A stretch of 64,000 nucleotides of DNA from assembly GCA_024571205.1 (NCBI GenBank), contig GCA_024571205.1_4523.1; one strand, given 5' to 3'. Numbering within the stretch: the first letter of the stretch is position 1; every line of letters starts with the position of its first letter. The DNA is from a phage. Positions 1-13,956 of this stretch are shown one piece after another. Both the position numbers and the translations under genes were made by a program. The notes below the pieces were generated by a model that did no database searches, was not told the DNA's origin, and was given only the letters and a program-made list of their open reading frames with translations.

Positions 1-227
1 AAATCGTGATTCAGGGCAAGACTCGTAAAGCTTTGACTGAAGAGCTAGCACAAATCGAAATGTACAAAGAACATGTCGATAAACTGGTGGGTCTTAACAT
101 CTTCCATATCACTTCCGACGAAGCACGTAAACTAGCAGAAGAAGCTAAAGCTAAGAAAGAAGAAAATGAGTATTGGAAGTCTACTGATGTTGTGACAGAG
201 TACACTAAAGACTTGGAGGCACTTTGA
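1..227 (+). CDS. 3' end of an early gene entering from upstream (partial); by synteny possibly topoisomerase II medium subunit, gene 52
   Basis: Open frame runs to the window edge, stop at 225-227, hairpin terminator follows at 304-324. Identity inferred only from T4 gene order upstream of motA. Confidence 0.35.
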   Translation, partial: IVIQGKTRKALTEELAQIEMYKEHVDKLVGLNIFHITSDEARKLAEEAKAKKEENEYWKSTDVVTEYTKDLEAL

Positions 228-303
228 GTGCCCTAGCCTTAGGATTTCTCGGTGCAATAGCTGCACTAGTGATTTGGCTGTATTGGTTGGACAAACATGA
301 TTA

Positions 304-696: not shown

Positions 697-731
697 GACC
701 TATCAAACAAATACTAATTTGGAGAAATAAA

Positions 732-1364
732 ATGTCTAAAGTTACTTACATCATCAAAGCTTCTGAAAACGCTCTGAATGAAAAAACTGCTGCAATAATG
801 GTTTATATCATTAAGAACAACTTCACCACTGCTGCCAATGTCCGTGAAGCTCTGAAAGCGGAATACAATGCATCGGTTGTTAACTCTAACATTGGTGTAT
901 TGATTAAGAAAGGTTTAGTCGAAAAATCCGGTGATGGACTTGTGGCAACCGGCGAAGCAATGGATATTATCCAAAAAGCTGCAGACCTCTTTGCCCAAGA
1001 AAATGCTCCAGAACTTCTTCAGAAACGTAACACCAGAAAAGCACGTGGAGTTACTCCTGAAATGCATGAATTAGCAAACTTTGTTTTTGAAAATATTAAA
1101 GATAAAGTTGAAGTTAAAGAAATCGGTGAAAACCGTAGTAACTTAGAAGTTCGATTCGCTAAACGAGTTCTAGGCATTCGCCAAATTGAAATTCGACGAG
1201 ATGGCGCTCTTAGAATCTTTGCATACAACATGTCAGAAACTGAATCAAAGCTGTTTACTTCTCTTGAAAATGATGTTAAGATTAAGATCGGTGGTAAATA
1301 TACTTACATTGACTTCCCTAATGTGTCTAAAGAAATCATTACCCTTGTAACTAACGTACTGTGA
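732..1364 (+). CDS. motA: MotA, activator of middle-mode transcription
   Basis: 210 aa, MSKVTYIIKAS...NSNIGVLIKKGLVEKSGDG, near-identical in length and sequence to T4 MotA as recalled. Confidence 0.9.
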   Translation: MSKVTYIIKASENALNEKTAAIMVYIIKNNFTTAANVREALKAEYNASVVNSNIGVLIKKGLVEKSGDGLVATGEAMDIIQKAADLFAQENAPELLQKRNTRKARGVTPEMHELANFVFENIKDKVEVKEIGENRSNLEVRFAKRVLGIRQIEIRRDGALRIFAYNMSETESKLFTSLENDVKIKIGGKYTYIDFPNVSKEIITLVTNVL

Positions 1365-1374
1365 GGAATACATA

Positions 1375-1704
1375 ATGAATAAGCTGAATATTATTAACGA
1401 ACTTCGTAAATGTGCAGAACCTACTCAGGAAGGATGGGATATTTGGTACCACGGGGCTTATTTAGGGACAATTGTAAAGATTAAAGCAGGCCAATATACG
1501 GTTATTCGTGAAAATAATGACGCGCCATTTGGCCTTCGTAAAAACTACATGGCAGCGATCAGTTCATTTGTTGATGCAGCTTACGAAATCTATAAAGAAG
1601 ATTATAAAGAATATCAGCAGTCACAACCGGTTATTCGTTCGATTGGTGTAAATAAACAAGCACAAAAATCTATTTGGCAACGTATTAAGGAATGGTTTAA
1701 ATGA
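1375..1704 (+). CDS. hypothetical early protein (motA-asiA block)
   Basis: 109 aa ORF, SD gagg upstream, position equivalent to the T4 arn.x small genes. Confidence 0.5.
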
Positions 1705-2162
1705 AAACTTTTAAAGAACGTTTAGCTCTGTTAGATAAAGCTTTGTCGCGTGAGACTCCGGAAAGTCTGGCTGCTAAATTAGCTTCTTACGGTGGTGAAT
1801 ATACAGAACAAAATGTTTTAGACGAAGTTCCTGAAATCTGTTGGCAGACTCTGTATTGGGATGAAAACCAAAAGTATCAACGACGAATTGTCTGCGCAGC
1901 CAACCGTTTTAAATTAAAAGATGGACGAACTCTTATTATTCCAGGTGCTCGTCATTATTCTAAAGATATGGCAGAAGTTTTAGATGTAGTTAAACCTCAA
2001 TTAGTTACTCAACAAGTTTGTGATGATGACCAAGGGTTTATTGACCAATATAGTAATTATTGGACACGTGAAGAAGCAATGATTATTGCAACTTACGCTG
2101 GACAAGTACGTATTGAACGTGGTGGTAATGAAAAAGAACTTTACTCTGAGGACCTTTACTAA
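1701..2162 (+). CDS. hypothetical early protein
   Basis: 153 aa ORF, ATGA start/stop overlap with the upstream ORF (translational coupling). Confidence 0.55.
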
Positions 2163-2443
2163 TGAATCTTAAACAACTCCAGATTGATGCTATTGAAGCC
2201 CACATTAATCATATCAAACGCCTGAATGTTATGATGGAAGAAAATTATGGTATGTATGCTAATCAGCCTGGTTGGGATGCTTTAGATCATCCTTATTTGG
2301 TTAATTTATGTAAAGGTGATACGTTAGCAATTATTCGTGATGGGTTAAAACCTTTCTTGCGCGACATGTATATTAAAATGAACGAAGAAATTATTAGCTC
2401 GTTGCAATATCAATTAAGGAAATTAGATGATGAGAATAATTGA
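2162..2443 (+). CDS. hypothetical early protein
   Basis: 93 aa ORF abutting the previous stop. Confidence 0.5.
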   Translation: MNLKQLQIDAIEAHINHIKRLNVMMEENYGMYANQPGWDALDHPYLVNLCKGDTLAIIRDGLKPFLRDMYIKMNEEIISSLQYQLRKLDDENN

Positions 2444-2654
2444 TTCTAAAGCAGATTATTTTAATTCTGTTAATGATAAGAATAAAGCTTTAATTCGCCA
2501 CTTTATTACTGAGATGGGTTATACTGACTCTAAAGATTTGAAAGAGCACATTATCGAATGTTCTGTGGCTAAAAAGTTTTCTTTCACAGACAAATGTTTA
2601 AATGAGGTTATAAATCATTATGAACAATCTTGTAGCAAAACACGATTTCAATAA
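2427..2654 (+). CDS. hypothetical early protein
   Basis: 75 aa ORF overlapping the previous ORF end by 17 nt. Confidence 0.45.
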   Translation: MMRIIDSKADYFNSVNDKNKALIRHFITEMGYTDSKDLKEHIIECSVAKKFSFTDKCLNEVINHYEQSCSKTRFQ

Positions 2655-2728
2655 GGCTTCTGTCCATAAGGACAAGAAGAAATCAGAACTTCAATCTAAA
2701 CGCAAACAAAAACATAAGGGTAAAGACT

Positions 2729-3028
2729 ATGCTTACTAAAATCAAAGAAAATCCTGCCACTGAACTTGTTATTCGATGTGAAGAACTTGCAGAGCTTTAT
2801 CAGGTTAACCGAGAAGTGTGTCGTAGTGTTATCGTAGATATGGAAGATGAAGTCTGTTCTCGTATTCCTTTTAGTGTCGATTTCAACCATATGAAGCCTG
2901 GTGAAATCACTATCGTCTTTGGTTCTGACTATACTGAAGAACGGGCTCTTAATGTCCTAGAATATGAAATGTCGTTCTTTGACATACAGGACTACATTGA
3001 TAGTTATAAGGAACAATATGAGTCATAA
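2729..3028 (+). CDS. acidic small protein; possible Arn-like anti-restriction protein by position and composition
   Basis: 99 aa, strongly acidic (DMEDEV, EYEMSFFDIQDYIDSYKEQYES), located just upstream of asiA where T4 carries arn. Assignment not verified. Confidence 0.4.
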   Translation: MLTKIKENPATELVIRCEELAELYQVNREVCRSVIVDMEDEVCSRIPFSVDFNHMKPGEITIVFGSDYTEERALNVLEYEMSFFDIQDYIDSYKEQYES

Positions 3029-3179
3029 TCTTCAGAACGTAGTAGAGGCCGAACGTGAGCGTGAGGCTTTAATCTATGATGAACTATTGGCCTCGTTCTT
3101 AGCCTTACACTCGTACGAACAGGAAGACTACATTGATTACGTTAAAAGCGTAGAAAAAGCCGTTTACAATCAACACTGA
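3018..3179 (+). CDS. small hypothetical protein (53 aa)
   Basis: ATG at 3018 after SD aagga; the longer track ORF (from 2964) overlaps the preceding gene, so the internal start is preferred. Confidence 0.35.
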   Translation: MSHNLQNVVEAEREREALIYDELLASFLALHSYEQEDYIDYVKSVEKAVYNQH

Positions 3180-3225
3180 TAATGGTACTATACTCCTAAC
3201 AATTAAGTGGAATGAATAAAACGTT

Positions 3226-3498
3226 ATGAATAAAGACATTGAAATCGTACGTGAAATTATTACTATTGCTTCTATTTTGATTAAATTCTCTAGGGAAGAT
3301 ATTGTTGAAGACCGAGCAAATTTCATCGGATTCTTGAATGAGATTGGAATTAAAAAAGATGGTCGGCAGCTAAATCAGAATTCGTTCAGAAAACTAATTA
3401 CAAATTTAACTGCCGAAGAAAAGAAAACACTGATTAGTGAATTCAATGAAGGTTTTGAAAATATTTATCGCCATTTGACGATGTATTCTAACAACTAA
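3226..3498 (+). CDS. asiA: AsiA anti-sigma70 factor
   Basis: 90 aa, MNKDIEIVREIITIASILIKFSREDIVEDRANFIGFLNEIG, matches T4 AsiA in length and sequence as recalled. Confidence 0.92.
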   Translation: MNKDIEIVREIITIASILIKFSREDIVEDRANFIGFLNEIGIKKDGRQLNQNSFRKLITNLTAEEKKTLISEFNEGFENIYRHLTMYSNN

Positions 3499-4158
3499 TT
3501 ATTTAGCCCGCCCTAATATCCTTGCTGCTTGGTTGCATATTGCAGCCAAGCGTTCTTCATTTAGCACATCCGATCCCTTATACCAATACATAGAAACAGT
3601 TCCCGCATATATGTTATCCAAATTGAAGTAAGGACAACTATACATATACGCCAGTTCCGGAGTTTTTGATTTGGTAGGTAAGAAAGCAAAATCTGTTTTA
3701 GAAGTAAAGTGAAGTCCACTTAAATGGACCGAATATTCTGCTGTCGTTTTATCAACAGGAAATCCTCCCATAGATTTTTCAGTTACTGTGCTAGGTAACT
3801 TACCTTCATACGCAATAAGGTCGACGAAATAATTTAGATTTTTAGGTCTGAAAGAATACACCGAACTAAAATCCGCCCTTGATGTGACGTGGACTATTTG
3901 TAGTTGTTCTAAAGCCGCAGATTCAAATCGTGTATTTCTTTCTTTTTGAATTACTTCTGTGTAAGTATCATATTTCGACCTCACGTAATAATCCATAAAA
4001 ATATTCCCTTTGTACCATATTAGTGCCATTAGGAACAAAAGAACTACAACAGCAACTCTTGAAATAAGAATATTTCCAGAGGCGTTATCTTTGAAAATGC
4101 GGTCTAGCAACCCAAATAAAATATCACTAGGCGAAAATGATACTTTTGGTGCTGCCAT
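3499..4158 (-). CDS. t: holin t
   Basis: MAAPKVSFSPSDILFGLLDRIFKDN...CPYFNLDNIYAG...ARILGRAK matches T4 holin. Start set at the second ATG (4158), 4 nt after SD GGGAGG; late promoter at 4178-4185. Confidence 0.9.
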   Translation of the reverse strand: MAAPKVSFSPSDILFGLLDRIFKDNASGNILISRVAVVVLLFLMALIWYKGNIFMDYYVRSKYDTYTEVIQKERNTRFESAALEQLQIVHVTSRADFSSVYSFRPKNLNYFVDLIAYEGKLPSTVTEKSMGGFPVDKTTAEYSVHLSGLHFTSKTDFAFLPTKSKTPELAYMYSCPYFNLDNIYAGTVSMYWYKGSDVLNEERLAAICNQAARILGRAK

Positions 4159-4177
4159 ATTACCTCCCATTTATCAA

Positions 4178-4185
4178 TATTTATA
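4178..4185 (-). promoter_or_regulatory. late promoter (TATAAATA) for holin t
   Basis: tatttata on the plus strand = TATAAATA on the minus strand, about 20 nt upstream of the t start. Confidence 0.5.
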
Positions 4186-4203
4186 ATTGAGAGGTATTAT
4201 CGT

Positions 4204-4983
4204 TTAAATCCAGGAGCCGTAGATTGTGCCTGTAGCACCCCATGACGGTGAACTTCCGAATACTGCTCTGCCAGGAGCACCACCGCCAGATCTAGATAAG
4301 TGATTACCCCATCCATCTCCGCCACGACCTCCAGCATCACCGCCATTGCCTCCGCCGAATTGGGAAGTGTAACCGGCCCCGCCCGGGGCGTCATAACTAG
4401 CATTACCACCCGGCCAATTAACGCCACCTCCGCCGATGCCAAATGGTCTACCACCACCGCCACCTGCTGTAGCATTTGGCGCCCAGCTATTCTGTAATGA
4501 CACTGCACCACCTCCGCCACCGCCTGATGCAATAACACCATAGTTCCAAATACGAAGTCTTCCGCCGATATCATTTTGGATTACATCGCCACCATTAGTG
4601 CCTGGGTTTCCGTTTACAGTACCGTTACCACCTCGTCCCCACATATGAACTCCACCATGAATATTCAAAGTAACATATTCATTTGGCGTATCGCCATACA
4701 TAAAGAATAATGGAACATCTTTACTATATGATACCAAATTTCCGGTGATATTAAACACTATAGGTGCACTACCTGCCTCAAAACATCTATCTCGGAACCA
4801 TTGACCGTTGAAGTTATGGTCTGCTCCAAGTGTGTGAATTATTTCTCTTGAACGGCCCGCGAATTGGGACATCCATGAAGGGTTTCCTAAACGAAGTTCC
4901 CTTGAAGCAGCCGTCATCCATCTTTGTCCCGTTTCAGCAACGGCTGAAGTCCCAATCCAACCAGGGATTCCTACTACTGCCAT
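4204..4983 (-). CDS. 38: gp38 tail-fiber adhesin, T2 type, with glycine-rich motifs
   Basis: 259 aa, [24 protein letters not shown]-terminus and C-terminal half with repeated GGGGG motifs, directly downstream of gene 37. T2-type adhesin rather than the T4 chaperone form. Confidence 0.85.
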
Positions 4984-5013
4984 ATAAACCTCCAGGGCCC
5001 GAAGGCCCTTTTA

Positions 5014-8000
5014 TTATTTTATCAATGATTTAATTAATGCTTTCAATTCGGTAATTTCAGATTTCAATTCCTTGATTTCATCTGTATGCTCGTTTATTGC
5101 AGCTGTATTTAAACCAATAATACCGTTATAGTTCAAACGAAGCAGTCCGGTCTCTTTATCTTCAGAAACAAGTTCAGGTAATACTTCTTGAACTTCCTGA
5201 GCAATTAAACCTGCGGACGGTTTAACTTCGTCTGTAACAGAGTTTTTAAGCAGATAAGTATAACCGCCCAATAGTTTAGATTTCTCTTGAGCGTTCTTAA
5301 TAAGCTTAATTTCCGACTTACAACGAATATCAGAACGAATATAAACGTCGTTAACATCAATGTTATCACGAACATACATACCTGCATTACAGTGGAAGTT
5401 AACATCACCGAATGTCTGAGCTAAACCAGGTCTAAAACTAAACACACCTTGGCCGTTTGCATATGCGTTGAAAATACCATCGTTTTCCCAAAGCAAACCG
5501 GTATCGTTATCTCCAAGTACAATACACGGCCCGCCCCATGCAGGGTCACCACCACCAGCTGATACTCTACTGCTCTTAAGTAAGCTTGGAGCATAAAAAG
5601 TACCGTTATGATGGAATTCATATACAGCTTGTGGGTCGTAACCGTTTTCCTGATTACCTACACGAATAATACCTTGTGCCCATGTATTAGTAATGCGTCG
5701 CATACCAAAATCTACACCAGATATGTATCCTTCATTAGTAATACCGGATTTTCCTTTAATAATAGGATAATAACTATCATTACCAACATTACCAAAATCT
5801 ACAAATACCGGTGCTTCTTGATTCCATTGATTTCCCCAACCACCGCCCTGGTGTGCGGCCCATTGTGTACCGTTTATATGGAGGCGGTCTCTATTAAAAT
5901 TAAATGTTCCTTGGCCTTGAGGAGAAAGTGATATTTCTCCGTTATTTGTTATATATACACCGCCTTGTGTAACATAACTGTAAAAACCTAGACCATTGTC
6001 GGCACCGCCTTTACCAATATACCAATTATTGGCCCCGGCCGTATCAGAACGAATAAATGATGAATCACTGGTCAAAGGAGGATTAAGAACTATTCCAGCG
6101 GCATCTTTATTAATCCAAAGAGTGCCGGTCATCGTGTCGCCTTCTTTCGAAACACGAGTCGCAATAGCATCGCGAATATTTGTAGTATCACCGGCAGAAG
6201 TAAACGTTTTCCAGATATCAGACCAGATATTACCATTGCGAGCAATAGTAGCTTCACCGCCGCCAACAGAAACGTTATCTGGGAAGTTAACAGTACCGTC
6301 TTGATTAAAACGAGACGTATGGCCTTGTGATCCATCTTCTTTCAGATGATGAATAACGAATGTACCCGAATTAATTTCAGTACCTAAAGACCAAACGGCT
6401 TTACCATTTAAAAACTTCTGTTTAACAATAGGATAATATTTGCTTACAGCATCATCATCAATTTCCTGGAAAATAGGAGCCGCTTGGGCATATTGAATAT
6501 CATATCCACCTGCGCCAGCGCCATGTCCAACAAATTTAATATATCCGTTTGCTGCGAACGTATTGTAACTTGATTGTAAATCTGGAATAGTAACTTTACC
6601 AGTATCTAAAGCCAAACTAAACGGGCGAAGTGGGCCGATATCACCATTTTTGCCTTCGCCATAAGCAGTTGGAATAATATGAAGACTTCCTTCTGAACGT
6701 CTAAAAATGGCTCCATAATCTGCGTTCCAAATACGAAGAGCATTCACTGCTCCAGATGAAATTTCACCTGTTGTGTGAACTCCTCTATCTCCAGCAGTAA
6801 CACCAGATGATTCAAATGAACCATTAACGTTCATTTCTACTTCGCCAGTAGTAAGTCTTTGAATATAGCTCATCCAGCTAGTTGCATCAGAAATTTCCAT
6901 AACGTTTTTACGGATACCTCCGCTTGGATCAACAAACGTATTACCCCAAACTTTAATATCCATATTATCAACCGAGCTGTATCCTGTTGTGTTGCCTCTA
7001 AACATTAGTGTAGAAGAATTATTTCTACCATCTATATTTACAGAACCGCCAATAACGTCAATATTACCAGGAGTAACTAACAAACCGCCGTGAGTATTAA
7101 TGTTTGTAGTACCCTTGCCGCGGAAATAATGATGATAGTTACCGCCTTGATAATATCCCAAAAGAGTCTGACCATCTCCAAACGCGTTATTATCGTGATA
7201 TGTCACAACAGTAGCAAGAGCATAGTTTTCAGTTGGAGGAGTAGTTAAATCGGTTCCATTAGTAGAATATCCAGCTACAAATTTTCTTAGGCTAGTTGTT
7301 TCGCTAGGATTAAATAAAAACGTTTTTGTTCCATTATTAACGCTGAAATAATATCCGTCTTGATGCCATTTAAATCCAGTATCATTATCTCCTAAAGCAA
7401 TGCTAGATGGTCCTAATATTGAATAATCTTTATTACCTGGTGTTAAACCGATAGAAATTGAGTGACTTGATTTAATTCCGCCGCTCCAGGTAAATGACCA
7501 AAGATAAGCATCTAATCCATCTCCACTATACCAAGTTATTCCATCATTATCTTTAACTTCATGGAAAATACCAGAACCAACGGCATTACGCATGACACGA
7601 AGATGATTAATAGCAGTAGTGCTTTCAGACAATGGAACATTGTCTGCCATCGAATAGATGTCATAATCACCCGTAGATTTATTATTAGTAATGACTTTGT
7701 TGGTTAGAATTTGTGGAGACGAAATAGATTTCCATGCTGATACTTCAGGTGAAGTAAATAGTCCACTGCCTGAAAATGCATAAGTGCTTTCGCTACCAGC
7801 GGCATAGTCTTGAACCCTGATATTAAGTACTTGTGTAGTTAAACCATCATTAGCCGGGGCATAAATGATTCCGCGTTCGCGACTATTGTTATCGAAAAAA
7901 CGAACATGTGCTGTGCCTGAACTTTTTGTAATAAGTTCACCGCCTTCAGTCATAATCTGCCCGGCGGCAATAATATCGCGAGTTACTCGAGCAATACCAG

Positions 8001-8265
8001 TTAAATTAAAATTACCCGTCTGTGTGAAGACGCCATTTAAAGTATAATCACCAGTTTGGTTGTAATTGCCAGTATGAATAACATTCCCGTCAATACTACC
8101 ACCTTTAGCAAAACCTAGATCAATAATATTTCCTTGGTCATCTTTAGTAAAAAGTACACGGTCTTTTAAGTTTATAGCCAATTCACCTTCGGCTAATACT
8201 GAAGCGGCAGGACGTGCTCCTGCAGTTTTGCTTCTTTTAAATTGTATTTGTTTTAAAGTAGCCAT
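5014..8265 (-). CDS. 37: gp37 long tail fiber distal subunit
   Basis: 1083 aa, MATLKQIQFKRSKTAGARPAASVLAEGELAINLKDR N-terminus as in T4 gp37. C-terminal ~120 aa resemble an intramolecular chaperone domain ending in a coiled coil (EIKELKSEITELKALIKSLIK). Confidence 0.9.
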   Translation of the reverse strand: MATLKQIQFKRSKTAGARPAASVLAEGELAINLKDRVLFTKDDQGNIIDLGFAKGGSIDGNVIHTGNYNQTGDYTLNGVFTQTGNFNLTGIARVTRDIIAAGQIMTEGGELITKSSGTAHVRFFDNNSRERGIIYAPANDGLTTQVLNIRVQDYAAGSESTYAFSGSGLFTSPEVSAWKSISSPQILTNKVITNNKSTGDYDIYSMADNVPLSESTTAINHLRVMRNAVGSGIFHEVKDNDGITWYSGDGLDAYLWSFTWSGGIKSSHSISIGLTPGNKDYSILGPSSIALGDNDTGFKWHQDGYYFSVNNGTKTFLFNPSETTSLRKFVAGYSTNGTDLTTPPTENYALATVVTYHDNNAFGDGQTLLGYYQGGNYHHYFRGKGTTNINTHGGLLVTPGNIDVIGGSVNIDGRNNSSTLMFRGNTTGYSSVDNMDIKVWGNTFVDPSGGIRKNVMEISDATSWMSYIQRLTTGEVEMNVNGSFESSGVTAGDRGVHTTGEISSGAVNALRIWNADYGAIFRRSEGSLHIIPTAYGEGKNGDIGPLRPFSLALDTGKVTIPDLQSSYNTFAANGYIKFVGHGAGAGGYDIQYAQAAPIFQEIDDDAVSKYYPIVKQKFLNGKAVWSLGTEINSGTFVIHHLKEDGSQGHTSRFNQDGTVNFPDNVSVGGGEATIARNGNIWSDIWKTFTSAGDTTNIRDAIATRVSKEGDTMTGTLWINKDAAGIVLNPPLTSDSSFIRSDTAGANNWYIGKGGADNGLGFYSYVTQGGVYITNNGEISLSPQGQGTFNFNRDRLHINGTQWAAHQGGGWGNQWNQEAPVFVDFGNVGNDSYYPIIKGKSGITNEGYISGVDFGMRRITNTWAQGIIRVGNQENGYDPQAVYEFHHNGTFYAPSLLKSSRVSAGGGDPAWGGPCIVLGDNDTGLLWENDGIFNAYANGQGVFSFRPGLAQTFGDVNFHCNAGMYVRDNIDVNDVYIRSDIRCKSEIKLIKNAQEKSKLLGGYTYLLKNSVTDEVKPSAGLIAQEVQEVLPELVSEDKETGLLRLNYNGIIGLNTAAINEHTDEIKELKSEITELKALIKSLIK

Positions 8266-8273
8266 AAGTCCTC

Positions 8274-8930
8274 TTAATAATAGCCGAAATCTTGAACAGA
8301 ATCCTTAATAACAATTTGGTCAAATCGTGGAACATGCGAGGGTTGAGATGCAGGATTCTGTGAGAAAAAGTTTGGGGCGGTTAGCGCGCCGGTCATCGTA
8401 TCTCCTGAACGGAGTACACGACTGTTTGCATTAGCATTAACTGTATTTATTTGACTATCAACATAATCTTTGCGAGTAAGGTCGTAATTATTTAAAGGTG
8501 CTAACGTTGTGGCTCTGAATTGAGATGCTTCAATAACGCCTTTAGAACTTATATTACCGGTGCGAGTATCAATTACAGCGGTTCTTTCACCTGTACCTTG
8601 AGATGATTTAAACCCAATACCATACCACGAAACAATATCCATGTTTGTTTGGTCGAATGTCGCGGCGTCACCACCACCAGAAAAAATACCATTCGTTTGG
8701 TCATCTGCTGTTTTGACTGCAACACCTTCATTAAAGATTACCTTTTTGAGATATGCCCCACCGTTTGCTTTAGATACGAAATCGTTATCAGCAGCCTGTG
8801 GTTTATTGTATTCAGTATATAATTTAAATGTTTTGTATAAGATGTCATCGCCAGCTGGCATTAAAGGAAAATTGCCTTGATGCCATATGACGGAACCACC
8901 AATTGTACTTCCGGCTTTTAAATCGGCCAT
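8274..8930 (-). CDS. 36: gp36 long tail fiber distal connector
   Basis: 218 aa, position between 35 and 37, late promoter at 8957-8964. Confidence 0.85.
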   Translation of the reverse strand: MADLKAGSTIGGSVIWHQGNFPLMPAGDDILYKTFKLYTEYNKPQAADNDFVSKANGGAYLKKVIFNEGVAVKTADDQTNGIFSGGGDAATFDQTNMDIVSWYGIGFKSSQGTGERTAVIDTRTGNISSKGVIEASQFRATTLAPLNNYDLTRKDYVDSQINTVNANANSRVLRSGDTMTGALTAPNFFSQNPASQPSHVPRFDQIVIKDSVQDFGYY

Positions 8931-8956
8931 TTCGTGTCTCCTTATTAATATTAAAG

Positions 8957-8964
8957 TATTTATA
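8957..8964 (-). promoter_or_regulatory. late promoter for gene 36
   Basis: TATAAATA on the minus strand, 27 nt upstream of the gp36 start. Confidence 0.5.
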
Positions 8965-8988
8965 CGCGAAAAGGAGACCGAAGTCTCC
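8965..8988 (-). terminator. rho-independent terminator after gene 35 (minus strand)
   Basis: GGAGAC-CGAA-GTCTCC hairpin (8973-8988) followed on the minus strand by UUUU, then the gene 36 late promoter. Confidence 0.55.
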
Positions 8989-8989
8989 T

Positions 8990-10114
8990 TTATTCTGTAT
9001 ACTCTTTAAACTCTTGTCCAAATACCTTACCTGTATCAACAGATAACTGAGTAGGCAAATCCATTATATCATTGTCGGTTAATGATTCATCAATGTAATT
9101 AACGCGAATACCGTTTAGGCCGAACTCTGCTGGTTTTGCTATACTTCCGTTGCATGATACTTCGGTGAAAATGACATTTCGTAAACCACCTTGACCGACT
9201 GGGGCCGTACGATAACAATATACTGTAAAGCCGTCAGCTTCGGCTGGTATTTCGACATACTCTTCATATAACTTCCATTCACCAGCAGTTCCATCAAAGT
9301 TTATATCTTTAGATGATATAGGAGAGCTAGATGGAGTCTTAAAGAAACGAATTGAAAGTCTTGTGGTTCCTTCCTCTAATAATTCTTCATCAGCCATTAA
9401 TTGAAATTTCAGATAAAGAAAATCTGTAGGCTTTAATCTATAGTTTGCTAGAGGAGTAACAAGGGATGACGTAGGCATCCTTTTTATTTCATTGTTAGTT
9501 CCTCCAACAGGAGATAAAAACGTTTCCAATGCTTCGTATGTACGACTAGGGTAGCCGGTAGCACCTATATCAGCAATAGAGTCATAAACTATATCCAATG
9601 GGGTCCCATAATCTGCAATTGTTTTCTTATTACTGTATTTTATATGTTCTAACGCAATAGAATTTTTACCAGACACATAAAACGCCGAATATGAAATATC
9701 AACAAGATTAGCAACTTCAATCGAAGGTATAACTGAACTCCCTGCGGCTTTAAACCATGCAATTATTTCGGGTGGTAAATTAAATTTGTTATTAGAAATA
9801 AATGCGAAAATGAAATTATTTGCATACGTATTAACAAACGAAATAAATGCAGCTGAAGTGGCATTATTTGTTGGTGCAAAATTGTATAATTTACTATCAA
9901 CTATAGTCCCATTTTCCGGATTTATCACCCTAACATTTAGCCCAATACCAAAAGACTGCAGTCCTAAAGGCTCGTTTTGGAACAAAATATATGGATTAGA
10001 TGTTGAAAGCGGGCATGAACCCGCTATACTTAACTTAAATCTAACCGAATTGCTTTCCGATAAAAATGGCGTTTGGACGTATCCTTGTCCAAACCTTGCC
10101 ATAAATTTTTCCAT
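8990..10114 (-). CDS. 35: gp35 long tail fiber hinge connector
   Basis: 374 aa, MEKFMARFGQGYVQTPFLSESNSVRFKLSIAGSCPLST as in T4 gp35. Confidence 0.9.
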   Translation of the reverse strand: MEKFMARFGQGYVQTPFLSESNSVRFKLSIAGSCPLSTSNPYILFQNEPLGLQSFGIGLNVRVINPENGTIVDSKLYNFAPTNNATSAAFISFVNTYANNFIFAFISNNKFNLPPEIIAWFKAAGSSVIPSIEVANLVDISYSAFYVSGKNSIALEHIKYSNKKTIADYGTPLDIVYDSIADIGATGYPSRTYEALETFLSPVGGTNNEIKRMPTSSLVTPLANYRLKPTDFLYLKFQLMADEELLEEGTTRLSIRFFKTPSSSPISSKDINFDGTAGEWKLYEEYVEIPAEADGFTVYCYRTAPVGQGGLRNVIFTEVSCNGSIAKPAEFGLNGIRVNYIDESLTDNDIMDLPTQLSVDTGKVFGQEFKEYTE

Positions 10115-10122
10115 ATAACCTC

Positions 10123-13100
10123 TTATTCAACCCATATAAATTTAACGGTTTTGTTGACCGGGTCCGGAACAATTCTCACATTTCCTAATTGTAAGAAGTC
10201 TCGAACAGTAAGGTTTCCGATTACCGCGTTATCAGATGGGATAGCACCGACATCGCTAGGTGAAGGTGGGTTGCCGCTATCAAACACCATTGCAAATGAC
10301 GTCCAAGCGTCTTTGTTTTTCTGCCAGGTACGAGTGTAGCGAATACTACCACCATTTGCACCTGTAGGATAACAAATCCAATCCTGATAAAGCGAATCTA
10401 AACTATTACCAAATTGGGTCAAAGTACCAGGATATTTAATCTCTTGGTCACGGTTACCTTGGTTATCACGAGTCCAATACCCCGGGAATTGACTATATGT
10501 TGCAGAATCATTGATATCAATAGACCAAAAACCTACAGTAGAAGCAGTTGGCTTATCAGTATAAACGGTTGTTGTTTTAACACCATTAGAAATAATTCTG
10601 TTGTTTACAGTTAATCCACCAGTAGTTATTGTTGCACCACTTGTGATTTGAACACCATTATCCAAACGAACAAGACCAGTGGCATTGTTAATCGTGATTG
10701 GACGTAAGTTATTAAATGTCCCGGTTTGGTCACCTGAGTTAGTTAATGCGATATAAGAACTGTTGCCAGCGTTATAAAGCATAACACCATAGTTACCATT
10801 AATAGCTCTGAATGCAATAGGAGAACGAGAAACAATTTCACCTGTAGCAGTAATAGACCCGGTAAATGTCGAAACACCTGTAACGTTTAAACCATTTGTA
10901 GAAACAACACCAGCAGAATAAAGCGTTCCATTAACATTGAATGATACTTTACTGTCTGCGGCACGCTGAGAATAGAAATGATAGCCGGTTGTATCGCCAG
11001 CTTCAAATACTGTATCACGTCCACCAGTGGTAACGCTATTACCCCATACTCTAACAACAAAATCCTCTTTATTACTAAGAGGTTGGGTTCCTTTGGTGAA
11101 AAAGATTTCAGAACCACTAGAGTCATTGAGAGTTAATCTACGAGTAATAGATGCCTCGGAACCAAAAGAAGCAGTGCTTGTAGATACTAAAGGGGCACTC
11201 AGGTTGGTCTGCTTAGTAAGACTTAAAGAACCATTAACAGTCTGGTCGATGTCTCGACGGATGAACTGAAGAGAATCTAGCCCATCTAACAAATTGCTAT
11301 CTACGGCTTTAGCTTTCAATGGGAGATAGTTAGCAAGCACACGGTTTAATTCATATGGTGAAATAGCATAACCGTTTTTAGCGTATATGTCCAGGTCCTG
11401 CGTATTACCTTGGGTATCGTCACCAACAAATGTAATAGAGCCAGATGAAGTTCTTACAAATCCACGTTGAGATGTTGTTGCTTCCCATGTTGCTTCAGAT
11501 TGGACGATCCATTTTAAATTCTTAGGTGATACAGCGGTATTAGCAGAAGTTCCTGTTACAGTTTCTGCCTGAGTAGCAACCTTAATTACACCTTCAGACG
11601 TTTCAGTGGACTTAGTCCCTAAAAGCTTTTTAGGAGTAATAAGAACATCATCTAAAGTTCCTGCATTAGATTCTGCCTGGGTCGCTACGCGAAGTGTACC
11701 ACGCTGTGTTTCATTTGCTTTAGAAATATCAAGAGTATAATGGTTCCATAAGGTTCCTTCTTCAATAAGTCCGGAATCAGAATTAACACTGGTACGGCCA
11801 GAAGAATCAAAATGAGTTTTAATTTTCAGTGGAGTCGAGATACGAATATCATCAGTTCCAGTATCAAATTCAACTTGCGTAGCAATTTCGGCTATGCCGG
11901 ATAATCCTTCCGTAGCTTTCCTATCATTTAACGTCTTAGGCGTTACTGCTCTAGTATAATCAGCCCCAGCGTCAGTTTCTGCTTGCGTAGCAATTTCAAT
12001 TAAACCAATACGTCCATCGGTAGAAGTTTTCTTATGCAGAGTTTCAGGAGTCACTACAGCATTAGCCCAGCCGGTTTGCGATTCACCAGCGATAACTTCA
12101 CTTTCAATAGCAAGAATTACTGCACCCTGTTGAGTAGGGGTAGCTTTATACTGGTCAAGAGCCTTTGGAGAAATAGTTAAATTATCTACGGCTTTGTTAT
12201 AAACGTTAGTCCCGGCATTACCACGAATAGTAGCAGCTGTAGTACCAGTCGTAGATGTGTATTTTACAATACCAGATAAAACTTCAGAACCTTGACGTGC
12301 ATCCAATTTCTTAGGAGTAATAATAGTAGTATCATCAGTCCCAGCGTTAGTTTCTGCTTGCGTAGCAATTTCAGCGACACCTCTACGTGTTTCTGTTGCA
12401 GTACGTTCATTTAATTTCTTAGGAGAAATAATTAAATCATCCTGGAAAGCAAAATCGGTGTTCTGATTAACTTGTGTAGTTGTTGCAATACGGGCAATAC
12501 CACGCCGAGTTTCGGTTGCCGTACGATTTGCTAATGTTTCAGGCGTAATAGCAAGTTCTTTACCCGGAGAATTTTCTAAATCAACATTAGCTTGAGCCTG
12601 AGATGCTAGAGCAATAACACCTACTCGAGCTCTAGTTACATCACTAGTTGCATCAACACGTTCTACTGTGACAACATTTTGTTGTACAACCCAATAACTA
12701 GTTAAAGTGGACGTATCTTCGATGTATGCCAATTCAAGAACTGGAACATAAGATGTATCCCCATTGAATTCCAATTCAGGTACAGAAACCCATTGTGTTT
12801 CAGGTGGATAAGAAGAACGTTTAGGAAACTGGAGCAAGTTAATATTTGTTGCTATAACATCACCGACAGCCGCTTTAATTTTTACAGTTTGCCCTTTTCT
12901 CATATAATTCAGAGAAATTTTAACTGTATCACCGTTTGAAATACTAGTAGGCAAATTAAGATTTACCGTAGAAGACGTAGCGTTGTCGGTACCAAAAATG
13001 AGAACTTCTTCATTAGGACGAAGATTTGTATCGTTTCTAATAATACGAAGTCTTGCTTTCTGGTCGCCTTCCCATACACGCCATAAACTATTGGCGGCAT

Positions 13101-13956
13101 CATATACAAAAAATGCATCTGCAGAAGTACGTCCTTCAGCACGATGGGTGCCTATTTCTTTAATTGATGTCGTATCATCAAAAGTTTCAACAATCGTATG
13201 GTACAATGGGTTTAATTTGTCCAAATCAACAAGATTAATAATATCTCCATTGTTAGCATTACGCGGAAGTTTAATGTTGATTGGTTCACCTGAAGTAAAG
13301 CGTCGTATAATAAAATCATTTGCTTGGGCCTGATAAGCTGCTGCCGGAGTTACGGTAACAGTATTACGTCCATAATCCGAAATATACATCTGCCACAAAC
13401 GATTACTAAAAACAAAAACAATCTGGGATTTAGGATGGGTCATTAAAACAGAACGAACTTGTTGACCTCTAAAATTGACAATACTTTGAACTGGAGCTAT
13501 GATTTGGACTTTAACATATCCTACACGTCCACCTATATCAGATAAAATTAACGTATCACCGTCTAATGGGTTAGGAGGAAGAGTGAAATTAATATCAGTG
13601 CCTGCCGAAGTATCAACAGATATAGAGTTACCTACAGATAATTGGAAATCACCACCTGAAACAGTAATCCATTGGGCATCAGTACGGACTGCTTTCCATT
13701 TAACAGAGTCAAAGGTGCCCGCTGGTGCCGGAATATCACTTAAAGCCTGATAAAAACGATTATCATAAAGAACAATAAAATCTTTAGTATACGCGCGCAA
13801 CGCGTCATAATTCTGTACGGTGTTTTCTTGCACTAAGAAGTCAACGTTCACGCCATCGGTGCCAACTGTGCGGTCAGCAAGCGCAACGTTAACTATCTTA
13901 TCACCGCCTGCGTCAAGACCATCTTCGGCCCTGAACTTACGTTTGATGTCAACCAT
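10123..13956 (-). CDS. 34: gp34 long tail fiber proximal subunit
   Basis: 1277 aa, MVDIKRKFRAEDGLDAGGDKIVNVALADRTVGTDG N-terminus and ...NKTVKFIWVE C-terminus as in T4 gp34; late promoter at 13991-13998. Confidence 0.92.
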   Translation of the reverse strand: MVDIKRKFRAEDGLDAGGDKIVNVALADRTVGTDGVNVDFLVQENTVQNYDALRAYTKDFIVLYDNRFYQALSDIPAPAGTFDSVKWKAVRTDAQWITVSGGDFQLSVGNSISVDTSAGTDINFTLPPNPLDGDTLILSDIGGRVGYVKVQIIAPVQSIVNFRGQQVRSVLMTHPKSQIVFVFSNRLWQMYISDYGRNTVTVTPAAAYQAQANDFIIRRFTSGEPINIKLPRNANNGDIINLVDLDKLNPLYHTIVETFDDTTSIKEIGTHRAEGRTSADAFFVYDAANSLWRVWEGDQKARLRIIRNDTNLRPNEEVLIFGTDNATSSTVNLNLPTSISNGDTVKISLNYMRKGQTVKIKAAVGDVIATNINLLQFPKRSSYPPETQWVSVPELEFNGDTSYVPVLELAYIEDTSTLTSYWVVQQNVVTVERVDATSDVTRARVGVIALASQAQANVDLENSPGKELAITPETLANRTATETRRGIARIATTTQVNQNTDFAFQDDLIISPKKLNERTATETRRGVAEIATQAETNAGTDDTTIITPKKLDARQGSEVLSGIVKYTSTTGTTAATIRGNAGTNVYNKAVDNLTISPKALDQYKATPTQQGAVILAIESEVIAGESQTGWANAVVTPETLHKKTSTDGRIGLIEIATQAETDAGADYTRAVTPKTLNDRKATEGLSGIAEIATQVEFDTGTDDIRISTPLKIKTHFDSSGRTSVNSDSGLIEEGTLWNHYTLDISKANETQRGTLRVATQAESNAGTLDDVLITPKKLLGTKSTETSEGVIKVATQAETVTGTSANTAVSPKNLKWIVQSEATWEATTSQRGFVRTSSGSITFVGDDTQGNTQDLDIYAKNGYAISPYELNRVLANYLPLKAKAVDSNLLDGLDSLQFIRRDIDQTVNGSLSLTKQTNLSAPLVSTSTASFGSEASITRRLTLNDSSGSEIFFTKGTQPLSNKEDFVVRVWGNSVTTGGRDTVFEAGDTTGYHFYSQRAADSKVSFNVNGTLYSAGVVSTNGLNVTGVSTFTGSITATGEIVSRSPIAFRAINGNYGVMLYNAGNSSYIALTNSGDQTGTFNNLRPITINNATGLVRLDNGVQITSGATITTGGLTVNNRIISNGVKTTTVYTDKPTASTVGFWSIDINDSATYSQFPGYWTRDNQGNRDQEIKYPGTLTQFGNSLDSLYQDWICYPTGANGGSIRYTRTWQKNKDAWTSFAMVFDSGNPPSPSDVGAIPSDNAVIGNLTVRDFLQLGNVRIVPDPVNKTVKFIWVE

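Follow-up and report, generated by a model that had tools for sequence, protein, structure and literature searches.

Salmonella phage S16 provides the solved case of both protein families of an adhesin-capped long tail fiber: at its tip (PDB 6F45) three gp37 chains carry one gp38 molecule as a cap, and three Trp residues of gp38 plug into the gp37 tip (PMC6851490). S16 gp38 combines these Trp prongs with a β-helix and a polyglycine-II sandwich, the C-terminal chaperone of S16 gp37 (113 aa) is cut off within the motif DLNVS^SDRRIKK (PMC7917993), and the receptor is OmpC. The receptor-binding domain of PP01 gp38 has also been solved (PDB 9V85), and its receptor is the OmpC of O157. T2 and T6 have the same architecture, with a gp37 that contains VYIRSD and whose C-terminal domain is cleaved, and a gp38 with a conserved N-terminus. 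The receptors of T2 gp37/gp38 are FadL and OmpF, and that of T6 is Tsx. T4 shares the genome position and the gene names, but its gp38 acts only as an assembly chaperone, and its gp37 lacks an S74 chaperone and is itself the receptor-binding protein. Finally, phages with an OmpF-type gp38 (RB69, RB51, Bas47, also named AlbertHofmann, Bas46, FL31 and FL33) have the gene order 36-37-38-t and an S74 chaperone on gp37.

A probable distal tail-fiber unit with an adhesin cap

The 64,000-nucleotide stretch of phage DNA analyzed here (the window) carries the same unit. Both open reading frames lie where the preliminary description had placed them, including the 259-aa gp38 (Table 1). Gene 38 lies between gene 37, which it follows directly, and the holin gene t, an order also found in T2, T6, RB51, RB69, Bas47 and Bas38. 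The whole 4062-nt module is 99.5–99.8% identical at the nucleotide level to those of CCU7, PECP20 and CAU_ECP01 (GenBank PV806175, OQ873415 and PQ572755, respectively), which differ from it by a handful of nucleotides. We consider it very probable that the module encodes the distal, adhesin-capped part of the long tail fiber in a T-even coliphage that resembles RB69 (Mosigvirus), and we extend this confidence to the account of its assembly and receptor given below, taken as a whole. Such a tip is ordinary and already well described: the fiber type, the polyglycine sandwich, the gp37 chaperone and the OmpF allele have all been published, the exact gp38 is already in GenBank, and the locus brings no novelty to phage biology in general. 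Rfam and ARAGORN returned no match across the whole window, and NCBIfam holds a model for neither gp37 nor gp38.

Table 1. Positions of genes, protein segments and signals at the gene 37–38 locus.
Feature	Position	Strand	Evidence or remark
Holin gene t	3499..4170		Neighbor of gene 38
Gene 38, tail-fiber tip adhesin, 259 aa	4204..4983	-	ORF; Pfam; PDB; same protein in PECP20 and CAU_ECP01
gp38 aa 116-238, glycine-rich motifs and hypervariable segments (inferred polyglycine-II sandwich; aa 133-153 β-helix)	4270..4638	-	G-runs; conservation
gp38 variable loops, about aa 122-127, 160-173, 188-200, 205-209 and 223-232
Codon CAA for Q208, equivalent to RB51 Q206	4360..4362	-
gp38 aa 47-115, N-terminal part of the inferred central β-helix domain	4639..4845	-	Alignment to S16 and PP01 gp38; PMC6851490
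gp38 aa 1-46, putative attachment domain with W9, W22 and W37	4846..4983	-	Gp38_N; invariant Trp; co-variation with gp37 tip
GGAGG Shine-Dalgarno, 5 nt 5' of the gene 38 ATG	4989..4993	-
GGGCC-UUCG-GGCCC hairpin between gene 37 stop and gene 38 RBS	4995..5008	-
Gene 37, long tail fiber distal subunit precursor, 1083 aa	5014..8265	-	ORF; PHROG 1699; nucleotide identity to CCU7, PECP20 and CAU_ECP01
gp37 aa 978-1083, putative intramolecular chaperone (Peptidase_S74), 106 aa, with heptad-patterned C-terminal helix	5017..5334	-	Pfam; 6F45_A; motif; heptads
Codons of R977 and S978, predicted autocleavage site	5332..5337	-	Conserved motif; S16/fPS site
Predicted mature gp37 (aa 1-977), ending in DVYIR	5335..8265	-	Position of conserved cleavage motif; S16 analogy
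gp37 aa 418-561, domain common to the gp34 C-terminal trimerization region	6583..7014	-	Pfam Gp34_trimer, 4.6e-07; PDB gp34
gp36	8274..8930		Neighbor of gene 37
T4-type late promoter box TATAAATA upstream of gene 36	8957..8964	-
gp35	8990..10114		Neighbor
gp34	10123..13956		Neighbor

gp37 carries a putative self-cleaving chaperone

The gp37 protein matches PHROG 1699, 'long tail fiber protein distal subunit', with E = 0, and a PDB search showed that its segment of aa 418-561 also matches the gp34 structures 4UXE, 5NXH and 5NXF (E about 2e-12). Its 1083 residues compare with 1103 in RB51 and RB69, 1341 in T2 and 994 in T6; past the first 50 aa the T2 and T6 proteins are mostly <40% identical to it. 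The C-terminal ends of the window and T2 proteins do align.

The preliminary description had gp37 end in a domain of ~120 aa with a terminal coiled coil. A separate domain is indeed present, as Peptidase_S74 (PF13884) matches aa 978-1033 (9.6e-12; 45.5 bits versus a cut-off of 22), but it measures 106 aa; a heptad pattern is seen in its last ~30 residues, where 7 of 9 a/d positions are hydrophobic in the best register. In the S16 gp37 construct 6F45_A, the counterpart of the chaperone is a C-terminal stretch of 113+ residues (1.7e-24). The chaperone also has a weak match to the autoprocessing domain of MYRF (7DC3; 0.023), and the longer segment of aa 909-1083 aligns with the S16 tip plus chaperone in 6F45_A (1.4e-30).

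The motif S978-D-I-R-C-K983 occurs a single time in gp37, at the start of the chaperone. Its Ser-Lys pair, within S-D-x-R-x-K, is one that we take to be a catalytic dyad, as in the endosialidase chaperone. VYIR followed directly by SDIR.K is kept in seven gp37 proteins (the window, Bas47, Bas38, RB51, RB69, T2 and T6). The cleavage position is known for S16 and the fPS phages, and the S16 site is homologous to that in the window (PMC7917993). We predict autocleavage between R977 and S978, in DVYIR^SDIRCK. By analogy with S16, gp37 would trimerize with the aid of its own intramolecular chaperone, whereupon the Ser978/Lys983 dyad would cut each chain; the departure of the 106-aa fragment would then expose a flat tip of three DVYIR strands, the predicted docking surface for gp38.

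gp38 belongs to the T2/T6/S16 adhesin family

The GP38 family (PF05268) covers gp38 with an E-value of 4e-83 (279 bits versus a cut-off of 25), Gp38_N (PF21721) matches aa 1-42 (8e-21; 74 bits versus 25), and no other Pfam family matches at E<=0.01. PHROG 2056, 'tail fiber protein; host specificity', matches at 1.4e-109. Among solved structures the closest is PP01 gp38, which aligns over aa 39-258 (9V85; 3e-73); its β-helix part is nearly identical, whereas its variable loops after aa 160 and its receptor differ. The S16 adhesin (6F45_D) aligns over aa 8-259 (2e-48), again with different loops and a different receptor. A single-sequence AlphaFold2 model was unusable (pLDDT 31, pTM 0.17), so that the fold of gp38, a β-helix with a polyglycine-II sandwich, is inferred from homology to these solved structures.

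These matches support the placement of gp38 in the T2/T6/S16-type adhesin family and not in the T4 chaperone family, as had been proposed; the best BLASTP alignment with T4 gp38 has E=2 over 14 residues. The proposed T2/T6-type arrangement holds for the architecture, with glycine-rich motifs in the same order. It does not hold for the sequence, which is that of the RB69/RB51 allele: gp38 is only 52% identical to T2 gp38 and 66% to that of T6, against 91–99% for RB69, RB51 and Bas47, and the variable loops of T2 and T6 are unrelated to those in the window.

GenBank records label identical or near-identical proteins 'long tail fiber assembly chaperone' or 'assembly catalyst', which would fit a gp38 that only assists assembly, as in T4, and a gp37 C-terminus that binds the receptor. 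We regard this as barely credible. Besides the unrelated T4 gp38, strong homology connects the window protein to adhesins with a solved place at the tip (6F45) and receptor-binding loops (9V85), and exchange of gp38 loops changes host range in relatives (bioRxiv 10.64898/2026.04.02.716166; PMC3157838). T4 gp37 is homologous over its N-terminal ~640 aa (35% identity), but the alignment stops near aa 640 and the T4 C-terminal region finds no alignment in the window gp37, and we therefore rejected a T4-like receptor-binding tip. According to a note in the RB69 record itself, the 'chaperone' labels were inherited from T4 gene names; on several near-identical records they are wrong for this type of protein.

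Glycine motifs alternate with variable segments

The poly-glycine motifs separated by short variable segments that had been described for gp38 were confirmed. Glycine makes up 24.7% of the protein and 35% of aa 110-259, far beyond chance composition, with runs at residues 154-159, 174-178, 184-187, 210-212 and 233-235. When the window protein was compared with T2, T6, PP01 and S16 gp38, which together represent five receptor types, conservation within aa 110-259 was 0.77 for glycine versus 0.37 for non-glycine positions, which indicates that the glycine motifs make up a conserved scaffold and that the variability lies in the intervening segments. Because gp38 is glycine-rich, the local GC content rises to 0.45–0.48, compared with about 0.35 in the flanks.

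The GC-rich glycine codons also give rise to spurious ORFs that overlap gp38 on both strands, at 4197-4574 (-) and 4300-4497 (+), and such overlaps might be taken to mean that the glycine-rich frame is itself an artefact of composition or a gene that has decayed. The gp38 frame, however, is intact and full-length with a Shine-Dalgarno sequence, and all family-invariant residues are present. PECP20 and CAU_ECP01, two infectious phages from independent isolations, encode exactly this protein (100% identity), and dozens of others have one that is >90% identical. The identical protein in infectious phages and the invariant residues exclude this reading.

The gp38 attachment domain co-varies with the gp37 tip

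W9, W22 and W37 are unchanged in 11 gp38 sequences and align with S16 as well. On the S16 model one gp38 monomer would dock on the gp37 tip through aa 1-46, using these three Trp residues, and the rest of the protein would form a β-helix whose projecting polyglycine-II sandwich presents hypervariable loops at the fiber end.

The N-terminus of gp38 had been called conserved. Relative to T2 and T6 this is correct, since the first 46 aa are conserved above the rest, but among near-identical adhesins they are the variable part. Bas47 and Bas38 match the window at 46/46 of these residues, Bas46 and FL33 at 36/46, and FL31, like RB51 and RB69, at 23-25/46. The gp37 tip follows the same division where both were compared: over aa 901-1000 it is 90–100% identical to the window in Bas47 and Bas38, and 32–56% identical in RB51 and RB69. 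The type of attachment domain thus co-varies with the gp37 tip, which suggests a lock-and-key pairing.

Downstream of this domain the picture is reversed, with 211-212/213 identical residues over aa 47-259 in RB51 and RB69. A recent recombination at about aa 46/47 could have joined an RB69-type OmpF specificity domain to another attachment domain together with the gp37 tip that fits it, after which the module would have moved between Mosigvirus and Tequatrovirus backbones. I183 and R220 of the window gp38 replace L and W, respectively, of relatives tested on K-12, and in the same scenario would tune binding to variant OmpF loops of O157 or Shigella hosts. As a combined proposition we consider this unlikely.

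OmpF is the predicted receptor

Several reports connect the gp38 allele of the window to OmpF. Bas47 needs ompF, and complementation in trans restores plating (PMC8594841); RB69 and RB51 require OmpF together with FhuA and a full LPS core (PMC3157838); the RB51 receptor was OmpF by RB-TnSeq (preprint, bioRxiv 10.64898/2026.04.02.716166); FL31 and FL33 are OmpF-dependent, the effect on FL31 in an ompF mutant being a one-log reduction that falls under the study's own three-log threshold (PMC12032242); and fPS-2 and fPS-90, whose gp38 proteins are 95% and 92% identical to that of the window, use OmpF and LPS (PMC7917993). Receptor reports vary by laboratory, from OmpF alone to OmpF with TolC or OmpF with FhuA and LPS.

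Over aa 110-259 the OmpF-type proteins are identical to the window gp38 or differ by one to five residues (150/150 for RB51 and RB69, 149/150 for FL31 and Bas46, 148/150 for Bas47), and the equivalent of Q208 is shared. Because this segment matches the gp38 of OmpF-dependent phages and Q208 is retained, we predict that the receptor of the window phage is the E. coli porin OmpF, which the loops of this allele would bind at the outer membrane. As in its relatives, infection most likely also depends on the LPS core. For annotation, this means that the receptor can be predicted from the gene as OmpF.

A primary receptor other than OmpF, such as OmpW, OmpC, FhuA, TolC or LPS, would be compatible with the same architecture. 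A single change in the homologous loop, Q206L in RB51 (nt 617 A>T), is reported to switch that phage from OmpF to OmpW (preprint, bioRxiv 10.64898/2026.04.02.716166), Trojet et al. list FhuA and the LPS core as extra requirements for RB69 and RB51 (PMC3157838), Lutz et al. found a small effect of TolC (PMC12032242), and O157:H7 and Shigella were the isolation hosts of the closest phages, including ones with an identical gp38. Against this, the window retains every residue of aa 110-259 in RB51 and RB69, Q208 included, five independent studies tie the allele to OmpF, and FhuA, TolC and LPS may act indirectly, for instance by way of a changed composition of the outer membrane, a caution that Trojet et al. 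themselves give (PMC3157838). We judge another primary receptor to be distinctly improbable and retain OmpF.

Since one substitution in the loop region can redirect the adhesin, identity predicts the receptor on K-12 and not the behavior on hosts with divergent OmpF loops. The loops within aa 160-232, including Q208, are the predicted likeliest position for changes in host range. A search of the accessible literature found no receptor data for the phages with an identical gp38 (PECP20, CAU_ECP01, OLB35 and Shf125875) or for CCU7.

Transcription and translation signals

The window contains 20 T4-type late promoter boxes versus 7.4 expected, and boxes precede genes 34, 36 and t. None was found by the window scan between genes 36, 37 and 38, and the box upstream of gene 36 is the likely start of a 36-37-38 late transcript, from which all three genes would be expressed together. 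The hairpin between genes 37 and 38 has a predicted folding energy of -12.3 kcal/mol, which is no better than that of shuffles of the same 51 nt (z = -0.66). Its conservation in T2, T4, RB51 and RB69 is accompanied by compensatory changes in the stem, and it is on this conservation that its reality rests.

The module and its architecture

The preliminary description had read genes 37 and 38 as a receptor-recognition module of the T2 type, in which gp37 carries a C-terminal chaperone-like domain and gp38 is a glycine-rich adhesin at the fibre tip. The module is indeed present and was read correctly, and the reading can be narrowed to a predicted RB69/RB51-type OmpF adhesin carried on a gp37 whose putative self-cleaving S74 chaperone would be released by a cut at R977^S978. 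All parts of the module have been described before and the exact gp38 protein is present in public records, leaving little of interest beyond the published systems. Both ORFs lie on the minus strand exactly where they had been placed.

Features of the gene 37-38 locus (positions in the window; gp38 loops in residues of the window protein)
Feature	Position	Strand	Remarks
Holin gene t	3499-4170	-	mechanical ORF, start 4170, 223 aa
Late promoter box near holin t	4178-4185		
Gene 38	4204-4983	-	259 aa
C(UUCG)G hairpin	4995-5008	-	between gene 37 stop and gene 38 Shine-Dalgarno sequence
Gene 37	5014-8265	-	1083 aa
gp37 aa ~418-561	6583-7014	-	homologous to gp34 C-terminal trimerisation region, Pfam Gp34_trimer
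Second intercistronic C(UUCG)G tetraloop hairpin	8970-8991	-	between genes 35 and 36, mRNA strand
gp38 variable loops	about aa 122-127, 160-173, 188-200, 205-209, 223-232		

The alternative, that gp38 is a T4-type chaperone, had been named as the reading to check against. It was rejected, as a BLASTP comparison of the window gp38 with T4 gp38 gave no similarity (E=2 over 14 residues). Moreover, the window gp37 can be aligned with T4 gp37 no further than residue ~640, whereas its C-terminus aligns with the C-terminus of T2 gp37. Together, the missing T4 gp38 similarity and the T2-like gp37 C-terminus support the T2/T6 type; the window gp38 shares 52% overall identity with T2 gp38 and 66% with T6 gp38. 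Adhesin-type gp38 is labelled "long tail fiber assembly chaperone" or "assembly catalyst" in several matching GenBank records (H3, H7, H12, H32, H34, H36, H38), a name carried over from T4 gp38, an unrelated protein.

Composition and predicted fold of gp38

Pfam assigns gp38 to GP38 (4e-83) and Gp38_N (8e-21), and PHROGs agrees with the Pfam families of both gp38 and gp37; NCBIfam gave no relevant match for either protein. Glycine makes up 24.7% of the whole protein and 35% of residues 110-259, with runs of three to six glycines at positions 154-159, 174-178, 184-187, 210-212 and 233-235. The GGN codons raise the local GC content to 0.45-0.48, compared to ~0.35 in the flanks, and, on both strands, give rise to overlapping ORFs that are spurious.

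The fold of gp38 was taken from homology, a single-sequence model having reached a pLDDT of only 31. Residues 39-258 align with the receptor-binding domain of PP01 gp38 (9V85, 3e-73) and residues 8-259 with the S16 adhesin (6F45_D, 2e-48), which suggests a fold like these two structures. When the window adhesin was aligned with those of T2, T6, PP01 and S16, five proteins that differ in receptor, conservation within residues 110-259 was 0.77 for the glycines versus 0.37 for the residues between them. Glycine-rich motifs alternating with hypervariable segments are the published layout of these adhesins (PMC3157838), and the crystal structure of the S16 adhesin shows polyglycine-II helices, built from the glycine motifs, stacked as a three-layered sandwich with the variable segments as distal loops (PMC6851490). 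Trp9, Trp22 and Trp37 of the window gp38 are invariant among 11 aligned gp38 sequences; the three counterpart tryptophans of S16 anchor the adhesin in the gp37 tip (PMC6851490).

Predicted cleavage of gp37

A Pfam Peptidase_S74 ("chaperone of endosialidase") match covers gp37 residues 978-1033, and residues 909-1083 align with the S16 gp37 tip construct (6F45_A, 1.4e-30). In S16, gp37 is cleaved at the homologous site (DLNVS^SDRRIKK), which releases its last 113 residues and exposes the gp38 docking surface (PMC7917993). The motif S-D-x-R-x-K occurs once in the window gp37, at Ser978, and the surrounding VYIR^SDIR.K is kept in gp37 of T2, T6, RB51, RB69, Bas47 and Bas38; cleavage is predicted at R977^S978. 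gp37 does end in a distinct domain, with a predicted released fragment of 106 residues rather than the ~120 first proposed. The proposed terminal coiled coil is consistent with a heptad pattern in the last ~30 residues, where 7/9 a/d positions are hydrophobic.

The gp34-like segment of gp37 (residues 418-561) also matches 4UXE, 5NXF and 5NXH in the PDB (about 2e-12), and a fibre module common to gp34 and gp37 within one locus could serve as a recombination substrate.

Adhesin allele and predicted receptor

The module DNA is 99.5-99.8% identical to that of phages CCU7, PECP20 and CAU_ECP01, and PECP20 and CAU_ECP01 encode a gp38 with 100% identity to the window protein; a literature search found no receptor data for phages with an identical gp38. 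Across the specificity region (residues 110-259), identity is 150/150 with RB51 and RB69, 149/150 with FL31 and Bas46, 148/150 with Bas47 and Bas38, and 145/150 with FL33. Bas47 is ompF-dependent, as shown with complementation (PMC8594841). RB69 and RB51 need FhuA and a full LPS core in addition to OmpF (PMC3157838), and OmpF was also assigned to RB51 through genome-wide screens (bioRxiv 10.64898/2026.04.02.716166). FL31 and FL33 are OmpF-dependent with a minor TolC effect, the reduction of FL31 on the ompF mutant being only one log, under that paper's own three-log threshold (PMC12032242). With gp38 proteins 95% and 92% identical to that of the window, fPS-2 and fPS-90 use OmpF and LPS (PMC7917993).

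In RB51, Q206L changes receptor use from OmpF to OmpW, and the opposite substitution restores OmpF use (bioRxiv 10.64898/2026.04.02.716166). The counterpart, Gln208, is retained in the window (codon CAA, 4360-4362). From this residue and the specificity region shared with OmpF-assigned phages, OmpF is quite likely the primary receptor; some doubt stays because single substitutions and host porin variants easily change the outcome.

Q206L (nt 617 A>T) is reported as the cause of OmpW specificity in the RB68 stock (bioRxiv 10.64898/2026.04.02.716166). The RB68 gene 38 in GenBank (KM607004, L006:301-1074) is nucleotide-identical to that of RB51 (L005:4501-5274), with CAA (Gln) at codon 206; record and laboratory stock apparently differ.

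Modularity and exchange between genera

Within this allele group, the varying part of gp38 is the N-terminal attachment domain, with 46/46 residues identical to Bas47 and Bas38, 36/46 to Bas46 and FL33, and 23-25/46 to RB51, RB69 and FL31. It covaries with the gp37 tip and chaperone, gp37 residues 901-1000 being 90-100% identical to Bas47 and Bas38 versus 32-56% to RB51 and RB69. This lock-and-key relation was already described by Trojet et al. (PMC3157838).

Judged by identity, the window has a Mosigvirus backbone resembling that of RB69: motA-asiA shows about 94% identity with RB69 and Bas47, compared to about 74% with T2, T6 and RB51, and comparison of window positions 700-10114 with L003, L004, L005 (RB51) and L009 put the backbone at about 94-99% identity to RB69 and Bas47. 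Genes 37-38 are 86-97% identical to the Tequatrovirus phages RB51 and Bas38. This combination argues that the module has moved between genera, a behaviour already known for this locus. In Bas38 the shared block reaches through t and asiA-motA (88-99%), indicating cross-genus exchange of a larger segment.

Locus organization and expression

Genes 34, 35 and 36 precede genes 37-38 and the holin gene t follows, which is the canonical T-even long-tail-fibre arrangement. T4-type late promoter boxes (TATAAATA), enriched within the 64-kb window (20 found versus 7.4 expected), precede genes 34, 36 and t, and none was found between genes 36, 37 and 38; the box at 8957-8964 therefore probably drives joint transcription of genes 37 and 38. 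ARAGORN and Rfam returned no tRNA genes and no families at threshold across window positions 1-64000.

The hairpin between genes 37 and 38 is kept in T2, T4, RB51 and RB69 with compensatory stem changes. Read on the plus strand, both intercistronic hairpins resemble intrinsic terminators (hairpin plus T-run) and could stop antisense, early-direction transcripts. For holin t, a GGGAGG Shine-Dalgarno sequence lies inside the ORF, past the 4170 start, and an ATG at 4158 (219 aa, MAAPKV...) agrees with the 660-nt gene annotated in PECP20, CCU7 and Bas47.
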